Below the pieces are notes generated by a model, which saw only the letters and a program-made list of their open reading frames with translations, was not told the origin of the DNA and did not search any database. The position numbers and the translations under genes were made by a program. From sequence record NC_000866.4: DNA of 64,000 nt; one strand, 5' to 3'. This DNA comes from Escherichia phage T4. Below are positions 15,259 through 59,762 of this stretch, piece after piece; position 1 is the stretch's first letter; every line of letters begins with the position of its first letter.

Positions 15259-15288
15259 ATTATACCATACTCATTTTGGAAAGTAAAC
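15259..15288 (-). promoter_or_regulatory. early sigma70-type promoter
   Basis: Minus strand GTTTACtttccaaaatgagtatggTATAAT. Confidence 0.6.
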
Positions 15289-15304
15289 CATTTAAATGAA
15301 AAAA

Positions 15305-15322
15305 GGACTCCCGAAGGAGTCC
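15305..15322 (-). terminator. GC-rich hairpin with UUCG tetraloop downstream of soc
   Basis: ggactcc-cgaa-ggagtcc inverted repeat directly after the soc stop. Confidence 0.6.
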
Positions 15323-15330
15323 TTGAGTTA

Positions 15331-15573
15331 TTAACCAGTTACTTTCCACAAATCTTCATTTGCAGCAATCCATTCAGTACGTTGATTTTCTTCATATACT
15401 GTAGAATATGCTGCTTTTTCTGAAGGGAATGTCTGGTAATGAGCGCCAGAAATTTTGTGAACGTCAGAATAAAGAGGGAAAGCTACAGAAATTTCCTTTC
15501 CTTCAATTTTCTTATTTCCATCTAATTTCTGCTCAAATGTTTTGATATTAACATAACCGCGAGTACTAGCCAT
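15331..15573 (-). CDS. soc: small outer capsid protein Soc
   Basis: 80-aa ORF MASTRGYVNIKTFEQKLDGNKK... Confidence 0.93.
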   Translation of the reverse strand: MASTRGYVNIKTFEQKLDGNKKIEGKEISVAFPLYSDVHKISGAHYQTFPSEKAAYSTVYEENQRTEWIAANEDLWKVTG

Positions 15574-15603
15574 GTAATTCTCCTTTATTTAAATTACATG
15601 ATT

Positions 15604-15611
15604 ATTTATAC
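15604..15611 (-). promoter_or_regulatory. late promoter motif TATAAATA upstream of soc
   Basis: Minus strand TATAAATA about 25 nt upstream of the soc SD/ATG, inside the 3' end of the segF ORF. Confidence 0.55.
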
Positions 15612-16295
15612 ATCTTCTTTTCTGAATAAGTAAATTAAATTCTTAAGAGCCGAACTTGTTACATCATATTTTCCTTTAAGCGCCTTTACAACCGGGCCTG
15701 TTGCTGGTTTACCTAAAGAAACCCATAACTCGTGTATTTCGCTTTTAAGTGGTTCATGCCAATGCGGTGCTTTTCTTTGCGCCCTTGAAGTTCCTTCTGA
15801 AATCTTTTTATTTCCGCCATTCGAATAAAACTTTTTCATTACTTCAGATTGCCGAGCTTTTCTTTCTGCCCTATTTTGGGCTATACGTTGTGAATTCTTC
15901 ATCCGAGTTTTTGTTTCAGGATTGTTTAATCTAAGTTTATGTTCTAATCGTTGTTGCTCAGTCCATTTTCTTCCTTCTCCACCCTGACCACCAGGAGAAA
16001 TATTAATGCAAGTATCTGGGTGTTTACGTTTTAATGCAGATATTAGCTCACGTTCAACTTCATATGATTTTTCTCTAGAACCATGGCATTTTGACCATCG
16101 TATTTTATAATTAAATCCATACTTACGATATATGTTCCATAGTATTTTACCTGAACCCGGATATTTATCATTATATGGATTTACAATAAATGATTCATGT
16201 TTCCCAGCGTACCAAAAGACGCCTTTCGGCGTCCTAACTTTTACTATATATGTTCTATAAAATTTTTGTTTAATATCCATTATCTTGACGTTCAA
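15606..16295 (-). CDS. segF: GIY-YIG-type homing endonuclease SegF
   Basis: 229-aa ORF with an N-terminal GIY-YIG-like region (YIVKV...YAGKH); sits between 56 and soc. Confidence 0.75.
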   Translation of the reverse strand: MNVKIMDIKQKFYRTYIVKVRTPKGVFWYAGKHESFIVNPYNDKYPGSGKILWNIYRKYGFNYKIRWSKCHGSREKSYEVERELISALKRKHPDTCINISPGGQGGEGRKWTEQQRLEHKLRLNNPETKTRMKNSQRIAQNRAERKARQSEVMKKFYSNGGNKKISEGTSRAQRKAPHWHEPLKSEIHELWVSLGKPATGPVVKALKGKYDVTSSALKNLIYLFRKEDV

Positions 16296-16785
16296 AATTA
16301 TGTTTGTTCTTCAGATAATAAAGTTTAAAGATTTCTTCCGCATTCATTCCAAGGCCAACAAACATATTTAATACGAAATGAAATATATCCACAAGCTCAA
16401 ATTTAATTTCGAGCTGGTCTTCGGGGGACATTTCATCAATGCGTTTTTCTTGCGCTTCAATATAACGTGCTTTCCATTTTTTCCATACAGCAGAAGCTTC
16501 TTTTTCACCACGTGACATTTCACCAAGAGAAGTCAGAAGTTCGCGGAATTCATCATCAATACAGTCTTTTTGTTCACGCATCCAAGAAACAACATCACCG
16601 GCAGTTTCTAATTTATCTGGATGATAGCAGTATTCGCGGACATTAGCCAAACGAATCTGTAAAAACCGCTGCATATCAAGCATAACTTGCAGCGGATCTT
16701 TTTCATCACCGAGAATATCCCAGTATTCATTTTGAGCTTTATCAACACCTTCGATCAAATGAGCACATTCATTAAAGTGAGCCAT
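16270..16785 (-). CDS. 56: dCTP pyrophosphatase gp56 (MazG-like)
   Basis: ORF MAHFNECAHLIEG...; ORF-track start is TTG, ATG at 16783-16785 gives 171 aa; stop overlaps the segF start by 26 nt. Confidence 0.88.
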   Translation of the reverse strand: MAHFNECAHLIEGVDKAQNEYWDILGDEKDPLQVMLDMQRFLQIRLANVREYCYHPDKLETAGDVVSWMREQKDCIDDEFRELLTSLGEMSRGEKEASAVWKKWKARYIEAQEKRIDEMSPEDQLEIKFELVDIFHFVLNMFVGLGMNAEEIFKLYYLKNKHNFERQDNGY

Positions 16786-44809: not shown

Positions 44810-45845
44810 TTCATCAATGTGTTCAGTAGAGTTCGCTACTTCTCTACCCGTTTATATGAAACAATGTAATTTGGATAATTGTCATCTAAACACAAATCTT
44901 TAATACGACTTGGGTGGAGTTTTAAATCTTTAGCAGCATCCACAAATGATTTATAGATATTGTCATTTATTTTAACATATTCTGGGACGGGATGAATTGT
45001 TATTTTTATATCTATAACATTTGGATGATTACTAACCTGTTCTTCAGAGCATTTAAGAAATTTTGCAGCTGATTTAAAACTTCTAAATTTATTTCCGGAT
45101 TTTAAAGCTATAGAAACAGTCTTTTTAGCCGTTCTACTACCAATATTATTTTTAACATGAGCTTCACTTCTACTATTATTTTTATAATGCTCAATCAATT
45201 TCTCTCGTATCTTATCTTTATGTTTTAAAGATAAGATTTTACCTTTATGGGCATTACTAAGTTTTTGCTTATGTTCTTCTGAATCCGGATATTTGTTAAA
45301 TTTATATCCACCTATAGATTTATTAAGAATAAATTCGTTATTAAAATATTTCCTAATAAGCATTTCTTCATGTTTAAGGGCCGATTCATAAGAATCAAAA
45401 ACTTGAAGAATTATCCACTTAGCTTTATAATCTTTAAGCTTTTCTTTAACAAGCTTAGATGACGAATTGTATTCTTTCCAATTTGTATCTTTACCATATA
45501 TAGTTTTGAATTTTTTAAAACCTATATAAAAAGACTTATCAGGAAATCTTACCATATAGGTAAATGCTACAGAATTGGCAATTTTTAAGCTTTTTCTTAA
45601 TTTCCATTTCATCGTTTCACCTCGTATTCATATTTATACGAGGATAAACAGCTGCATGTCACCATGCAGTTCAGACTATATCTTCAACTCTTAGAGTTGT
45701 CTGCCGTTTCGGGTCGCTTGACCCTACTCCCTTACATTCATCAGGGATAGTCGTTGGGCATTTACAGCTACTGCTGATTTAGCAACGGATTGTCTCAGTG
45801 AGAGTTTCCCGTTTTAGGCAGATTTTACATGAGCTTGACTTACGT
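44810..45845 (-). ncRNA. group I self-splicing intron in nrdD, carrying the I-TevII ORF
   Basis: About 1 kb between the two nrdD exons; minus strand contains the conserved group I element AAGAUAUAGUC (about 45700-45725) and an intron-encoded GIY-YIG ORF. Confidence 0.8.
44836..45612 (-). CDS. intron-encoded GIY-YIG homing endonuclease I-TevII
   Basis: 258-aa ORF MKWKLRKSLKIANSVAFTYMVRFPDKSFYIGFKKF... with GIY-YIG motif. Confidence 0.88.
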   Translation of the reverse strand: MKWKLRKSLKIANSVAFTYMVRFPDKSFYIGFKKFKTIYGKDTNWKEYNSSSKLVKEKLKDYKAKWIILQVFDSYESALKHEEMLIRKYFNNEFILNKSIGGYKFNKYPDSEEHKQKLSNAHKGKILSLKHKDKIREKLIEHYKNNSRSEAHVKNNIGSRTAKKTVSIALKSGNKFRSFKSAAKFLKCSEEQVSNHPNVIDIKITIHPVPEYVKINDNIYKSFVDAAKDLKLHPSRIKDLCLDDNYPNYIVSYKRVEK

Positions 45846-59720: not shown

Positions 59721-59762
59721 ATATACCCCTTTAGTTAGATAAACCTATTTATAACTTTTGCA

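Follow-up and report, generated by a model that had tools for sequence, protein, structure and literature searches.

The short region between positions 15574 and 15611 of the phage T4 DNA analyzed here (a stretch of 64,000 nucleotides, referred to below as the window) is very probably the promoter and translation-initiation module of the late gene soc. The module lies inside an early/middle transcription unit, and segF is a promoter-less cassette that abuts its late-promoter box. This reading is carried by features that can be observed directly: the sequence anatomy of the region, the conservation of the box, exact breakpoints at the ends of the segF-specific DNA, a leader hairpin with covariation and a terminator. 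The initial annotation had assigned a late promoter and the soc ribosome-binding site to 15574–15611, and these coordinates are exact when the minus strand is read.

Anatomy of the soc promoter region

The 1701 bases around the soc promoter are 100% identical to GenBank record M30001.1, which identifies the window as phage T4; their identity with complete T4 genomes, where they occupy almost the same coordinates, is 99.9%. For annotation we used T4 records M30001.1, X01416.1 and HM137666.1. They agree with the window positions of genes 56, segF (formerly 69 or 69*) and soc, all of which are encoded on the minus strand. According to the list of open reading frames and the record annotations, the gene downstream of soc on this strand is mrh.2. 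The main features, all on the minus strand, are the following:

16270–16785, minus strand: gene 56 (dCTPase), from the record annotation; the segF ATG lies within its last codons, GAT AAT GGA TAT TAA
15606–16280, minus strand: segF coding sequence, 224 aa plus stop, with its ATG in the last codons of gene 56 and its TAA in the soc box; PHROG 314
15603–15610, minus strand: late-promoter box TATAAATA, P(L) 15.32 of soc; an exact match, annotated in X01416.1
15597, minus strand: predicted late transcription start, a G, the sixth nucleotide after the box, placed by the rule given in PMC2988020
15580–15584, minus strand: soc Shine-Dalgarno (SD) sequence AGGAG, 6 nt 5′ of the soc ATG (15573–15571); annotated in X01416.1
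15331–15573, minus strand: soc coding sequence, 80 aa, small outer capsid protein; Pfam Soc PF16855, E 2e-55
15297–15324, minus strand: intrinsic terminator after soc, with a 9-bp stem, a UUCG loop and a U-run; t 15.02 in X01416.1

Across the end of segF and the start of soc, the minus strand reads ...AAA GAA GAT GTA TAA ATA ATCATGTAATTTAAATAAAGGAGAATTAC ATG GCT... The TATAAATA box spans the last two nucleotides of the final Val codon of segF (GTA, 15611–15609), the TAA stop (15608–15606) and three nucleotides past segF. Both the motif and the soc SD had been placed inside the last segF codons. The motif is confirmed, but only five of its eight bases, counting the stop, belong to the segF reading frame and three lie beyond it, whereas the SD (15584–15580) is entirely outside segF.

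The region has the sequence features of a T4-type (gp55-dependent) late promoter. Its 8-bp box is an exact TATAAATA by the definition in PMC2988020, the ATCAT directly after the box provides an AT-rich downstream segment, and there is no conserved −35 element, the sequence 5′ of the box being unrelated among soc loci. T4 late promoters form a class without a conserved −35 element; the distance from their 8-bp box to the downstream start is about one helical turn, and box position 1 is numbered −13 (PMC2988020). Because of this numbering, G15597 is the predicted +1. The promoter feature in X01416.1 ends with the base that precedes this G.

Could the functional late box be another one? The near-consensus TTTAAATA at 15595–15588 is on the same strand, differs from the consensus by one mismatch and is nearer to the SD than the box at 15610–15603. 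However, a start six nucleotides on would fall inside the SD (at about 15582) and leave no ribosome-binding site. Moreover, TTTAAATA forms the loop of the leader hairpin considered below, and the other class of soc leaders has AATTAAACAA at this place, which is not kept as a box, while the distal box is invariant. We assign practically no probability to TTTAAATA being the functional box and reject it in favor of the box at 15610–15603.

Downstream of soc, AAGGACUCC-UUCG-GGAGUCCUU is followed by a U-run. Five of the nine stem pairs are GC and the loop is short, as expected of an intrinsic terminator, and a terminator scan agrees. The estimated dG is −15.1 kcal/mol, and none of 200 shuffled sequences folded as well; with a z-score of −5.3, the UUCG hairpin at 15324–15297, already pointed out in the initial annotation, is real. 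Immediately 3′ of this terminator, at 15259–15288 on the minus strand, there is a sigma-70-like promoter (TTTACT, a 17-nt spacer, TG, TATAAT), which corresponds to early promoter 14.95/14.98 for mrh.2 in the T4 records.

In X01416.1 (Macdonald and Mosig 1984), ATAAATAATCAT is annotated as 'put. promoter P(L) 15.32', and this feature shares bases with the end of the gene 69/69* coding sequence. The start of soc carries a Shine-Dalgarno feature and a 'reg. A binding sequence', and soc is followed by a 'palindrome sequence, put. transcription termination t 15.02'; P(M) 16.53 is annotated upstream. The P(L) 15.32 module is the same object as the one described here, with box, SD, coding sequence and downstream palindrome at identical bases. 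What our analysis contributes on top of this is comparative: the box is invariant, the breakpoints are exact, and the hairpin covaries in other soc classes. Soc fusions were expressed upon T4 infection from a plasmid that carries the 'soc promoter and soc terminator' (PMC6424964), and a dRNA-seq preprint (bioRxiv 10.1101/2024.04.04.588121) gives 150 T4 start sites. The soc promoter, its SD, the terminator and the translational control are already known, having been described in 1984. A paper by Macdonald, Kutter and Mosig of that year (Genetics 106:17), cited in PMC2988022, also concerns the soc late promoter with a hairpin at its ribosome-binding site.

The box in relatives and the edges of segF

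The comparison covered 23 soc loci. Besides T4 itself, these come from nine GenBank phages and from 13 IMG/VR contigs that were identified with the Soc protein. Although some of these loci encode a Soc protein only 47–65% identical to that of T4, a box [T/A]ATAAATA is present 37–42 nt before the soc ATG in all 23, whatever is upstream. It is TATAAATA in 20 loci and AATAAATA in the remaining three; A at −13 is the commonest natural variant of the late box (PMC2988020). In the alignment of soc leaders, seven of the eight box columns are invariant and the first is T or A. The SD is similarly constrained, AGG and the next A being invariant and the last G nearly so, and the soc ATG is invariant as well.

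The position between 56 and soc is occupied by segF in T4, in Dhakavirus AnYang (70% protein identity) and in contig L022. In T2 and T6, soc.2 and soc.1 are upstream of the box, a soc.1-like reading frame that crosses the box is also found in L014 and L024, and the remaining loci have other small reading frames upstream. Phages in which 56 directly adjoins soc (ESh29, Lutter, G50 and L013), as well as T2 and T6 with their soc.2/soc.1, all keep TATAAATA(A/G)TCATGTAATTTAAATAAA(A)GGAGAATTACATG. Where gene 56 is what precedes the box, its end is 0–48 nt away, and in L015 the TGA of 56 abuts the box. The soc.1 gene (Pfam DUF7422; PHROG 'head protein'; L005 1125–1334 in T2 and L006 1039–1248 in T6) crosses the soc box in another frame, and its TAA stop is located in the hairpin loop, 18–19 nt before the soc ATG (5 nt in L024).

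The comparison also delimits the DNA that is specific to segF:

15611–16269, minus strand: segF-specific DNA, 659 nt, without counterpart in segF-less relatives; bounded by the 56 stop and the first T of the box

In local alignments of T4 with six segF-less phages, the soc-side breakpoint is position 15610, the first T of the box, in all six cases. The breakpoint on the other side is 16270, the last base of the 56 stop, in five of them; for T2, the local alignment stopped short of it, at 16307. When a 161-nt query across the junction was used in blastn, 365 records matched, 48 of them over the full length, including the segF side. We took 60 of the 365, evenly spaced down the ranking. Among the matches listed, all 52 that lack segF start at the box; for 51 of them this is query position 51, equal to window 15610, and for the other it is position 52. 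Among relatives that are otherwise collinear, segF is thus either present or absent, with sharp boundaries (16270 and 15610), as expected of a free-standing homing-endonuclease gene.

Since segF-less relatives keep the box, and homology with them begins at its first base, sequence comparison supports a soc promoter that is older than segF and was left intact by it. This agrees with the initial annotation, in which a mobile segF had been inserted without disrupting the soc promoter: box and leader are kept in segF-less phages. The comparison with such relatives, proposed there as a check, gives the same answer through the constant position of the box and the breakpoint at 15610.

The opposite history would have the box arrive with the segF cassette, so that the late promoter of a mobile element now drives soc. 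It could draw on the overlap between the T4 box and the segF stop codon, and on one distant group of loci: TATAAATA is present in L022, which carries segF, and AATAAATA in its siblings L020 and L023, which do not. Against this, every segF-less phage that we examined has the box, followed by the identical leader and equally far from soc, whether 56 abuts it or soc.1 crosses it, and homology with T4 begins at its very first base. A cassette-borne promoter is therefore extremely improbable, and we reject it; the soc promoter almost certainly predates segF. In L022, the box region (about 42 nt before soc) reads GATG-TATAAATA-CGCTCG, and in L020/L023 it reads CGGT-AATAAATA-CGCCTG. In the L022 class, either the breakpoint or a tract of co-conversion may extend as far as the first box base or beyond it.

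How segF sits at this promoter can be compared with other endonuclease genes of T4. SegF belongs to PHROG 314, 'homing endonuclease' (E 1.5e-23), and its GIY-YIG status comes from record annotation and the review PMC2988022. Because no Pfam or NCBIfam match was obtained for SegF at the thresholds used, the family assignment rests on PHROGs and the record annotations. The fitting of T4 homing-endonuclease cassettes around host promoters was reviewed in 2010 (Edgell, Gibb and Belfort; PMC2988022). There, segF is described as a cassette that has no promoter and overlaps 56 by 11 bp, and SegF as active, with gene 56 as its target (Table 1). The same review gives segG (gene 32 promoters), segA, segE, mobB and mobC as genes in which promoters of downstream host genes are embedded, an arrangement argued to favor retention of the endonuclease gene. 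Although segF is not among the embedded-promoter cases of PMC2988022, it resembles them in that the endonuclease reading frame overlaps a downstream host promoter and host expression is preserved. It differs in that the overlap is minimal, 5 nt with the stop included, and in that the promoter lies at the cassette boundary, not inside the coding region.

In the mechanism we propose, the segF cassette (15611–16269) would be fitted between the gene 56 stop and the first box base, with an ATG supplied by the 3′ end of 56 and a TAA supplied by the box. As a late promoter has no required upstream element, other sequence can abut the soc box harmlessly. Such a promoter would let a mobile gene sit directly against a host gene, and even use its TAA as a stop, at no charge to the host. 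The soc/segF junction is a clean, base-exact textbook case and carries little weight as a discovery. For T4 engineering at soc (display, vaccine), it means that segF deletions must end at window position 15611 for soc to be expressed.

Other phages carry a different endonuclease gene in the same place. In ACG-C40 (L008 924–1760) and PYPS2T (L009 825–1661), the slot between 56 and soc holds a 278-aa homing endonuclease of PHROG 655, not 314. No significant similarity between the ACG-C40 endonuclease and SegF was detected by BLASTP (best E 0.065), and on this ground we rejected the idea that the two are variants of one gene. The T4, ACG-C40 and PYPS2T reading frames all begin at the same ATGGATATTAA within an identical 56 3′ end (…GATAATGGATATTAA). 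At the other edge, the five slot reading frames (T4, AnYang, L022, ACG-C40 and PYPS2T) end with xTA-TAA in the same frame of the TATAAATA box. There are exceptions at the start: AnYang is without that ATG, and L022 has ATGGCTATTAA.

Unrelated endonucleases on the same two edges suggest cassette replacement between fixed boundaries. It is conceivable, though we put it forward only tentatively, that the 56–soc junction is a fixed slot whose two edges, the ATG in the end of 56 and the TAA in the box, have been reused by unrelated cargo. If so, the cassettes would have been exchanged via flanking homology instead of being inserted independently, and the right edge could be base-exact for a structural reason, namely that the late promoter has no −35 element. 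Nothing at this locus is new in kind; the mildly novel residue is the pair of unrelated endonuclease genes on the same 56–soc edges.

A related difference is seen at the C-terminus of gp56 (16270–16284; L004–L022), which is ...QDNGY (GAT AAT GGA) together with segF and ...QDRGY (GAC CGA GGT) in most segF-less phages. The segF ATG exists only because gp56 ends with QDNGY and not QDRGY. QDNGY is also present in some endonuclease-less phages (L017 and L018), where it might be left over from a cassette that once occupied the slot or might be an old polymorphism.

A hairpin that pairs the soc start codon

The soc leader contains an inverted repeat, CATGTAATT...AATTACATG, that was absent from the initial annotation. 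It corresponds to the following feature:

15570–15601, minus strand: soc leader hairpin, 11 bp, with a 10-nt loop that holds most of the SD; dG −8.6 kcal/mol, z −3.1

In the RNA, the arm UCAUGUAAUUU (15601–15591) pairs with GAAUUACAUGG (15580–15570), and the soc AUG is fully paired. An equally good fold was obtained in one of 200 shuffles. Within an 86-nt context the T4 hairpin is modest (z −1.2).

The predicted +1 is the fifth nucleotide of the 5′ arm, so a late RNA and a longer one should fold differently. On the long RNA the AUG is paired, as in a sequestering hairpin. Folding of an RNA that starts at the predicted G15597 leaves seven AU-rich pairs, −3.4 kcal/mol and a free AUG. The same holds more widely: read-through RNA folds at −8 to −16 kcal/mol in nearly all leader variants, whereas the predicted late RNA has −1.1 to −4.6 kcal/mol across variants, with the exception of the L020/L022 type (−8.5).

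Is this hairpin conserved? The other soc class, with the leader ...ACACCUGUAAUUAA...UUAAUUAUGGGUG, forms an equivalent 13-bp helix whose register is shifted by two columns relative to the T4 class. We therefore rejected a single consensus hairpin for all 17 leader variants, and, as the registers of the two classes differ, covariation was counted on the 12 sequences outside the T4 class only. Among these 12 distinct related sequences, 91% of cells are paired in the helix, compared with 34–54% in slid registers. Compensatory changes affect three pairs and four cells (A-U to G-C twice and A-U to U-A once), and the covariation score exceeds that of all 500 shuffles, which, for 12 related sequences, is modest evidence. 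The soc hairpin thus appears to be a conserved structure with compensatory changes, modestly supported by these 12 related sequences.

These observations are consistent with what is known of soc translation. PMC3014915 names the gene together with e, 49 and I-TevI as a T4 gene in which a helix sequesters the initiation region, and genes with such sequestration, soc included, are late genes present on long polycistronic early/middle transcripts (PMC2988022). In T4 gene e, I-TevI and I-TevII, as in soc, a hairpin hides the SD or AUG on early transcripts; the late box is within this hairpin or immediately 5′ of it, and the late start disrupts it. Two differences set soc apart. Its main paired element is the AUG, not the SD, and its stem is AU-rich and weaker, at −8.6 kcal/mol against −15.3 kcal/mol for the hairpin around the box at 45638–45631, a second example of that control in the window.

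We propose that the soc hairpin links promoter position to translational control. Late in infection, RNA polymerase bearing gp55 would recognize TATAAATA at 15610–15603 without the need for a −35 element. Transcription would start about 6 nt downstream of the box, at the predicted G15597, and end at the UUCG-loop terminator (15324–15297), giving a monocistronic mRNA of about 300 nt. On read-through RNA from the promoters of 56/segF, the complete 5′ arm would pair with the soc AUG, and translation would be poor. A late transcript would begin within the 5′ arm and lose the base of the stem (C-G, A-U, U-A and G.U), so that the AUG would be exposed and translated well. It is this position of G15597 inside the 5′ arm that leads us to expect poor translation of read-through RNAs and good translation of late ones. 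In this scheme, we infer the start position, the gp55 dependence and late timing, and the repression of long transcripts, or take them from the literature, where reviews call soc a late gene.

Rarity of the motif and the source of soc mRNA

Exact TATAAATA occurs in only three copies in the 64-kb window, compared with 11.6 ± 3.3 expected from dinucleotide-preserving shuffles, an approximately four-fold depletion. At least three copies were present in 100 of 100 shuffles. Because the count is so far below expectation and no shuffle had fewer copies, the motif appears to be avoided in the window. All three copies are on the minus strand, 26–30 nt (from box end to ATG) 5′ of an ATG-initiated reading frame with an SD-like purine run. 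Such a depletion, with every copy on the strand that is transcribed, would fit selection that removes stray late promoters from a region of early genes.

This bears on whether the soc box functions at all. It might be argued that soc is made mainly from read-through of middle or early promoters upstream of 56, and that TATAAATA is incidental AT-rich sequence. Indeed, soc has the polarity of the upstream early/middle genes, P(M) 16.53 is located upstream in X01416.1, and structure-regulated late genes, including soc, are found on long polycistronic early/middle transcripts (PMC2988022). However, an incidental motif would not be expected to be both depleted about four-fold in the window and conserved before soc, and on this evidence we reject a chance motif. 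The AUG-pairing hairpin, in addition, is intact only on long RNAs, and in reviews soc is counted among the late genes that are repressed when carried on long transcripts (PMC2988022, PMC3014915). A terminator-like hairpin in the 5′ part of segF would also stand in the way of read-through:

16214–16233, minus strand: terminator-like hairpin GACGCC-GAAA-GGCGUC followed by UUUU, in the 5′ part of segF; dG −14.3, z −2.8

It is kept in segF of AnYang and L022, and X01416.1 has its 'termination site t 15.94' at this place; PMC2988022 likewise reports that segF contains an internal terminator. Judging from its sequence, this hairpin should lower read-through from the 56 promoters into soc. Taken together, we find it very unlikely that read-through is the main source of soc mRNA, and favor transcription from the late promoter at 15610–15603.

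The two remaining copies of the motif are of some interest in their own right. The second exact TATAAATA, at 45638–45631 on the minus strand, lies within the hairpin CCUCGUAU-AAAUAUGA-AUACGAGG (dG −15.3, z −5.0; region 45600–45650). This hairpin pairs the GAGG SD of a 258-aa reading frame, 45612–44836, whose product, like SegF, falls into PHROG 314 (homing endonuclease). We take this reading frame to be I-TevII in the nrdD intron, the classic arrangement of a late promoter in a hairpin. The third exact TATAAATA, at 59746–59753 on the minus strand, is 10 nt past the stop of thymidine kinase (193 aa, NF003300) and about 25 nt before the ATG of a 70-aa reading frame of PHROG 1826. Judging from its position, this copy may be a late promoter that serves a small gene within an early region.
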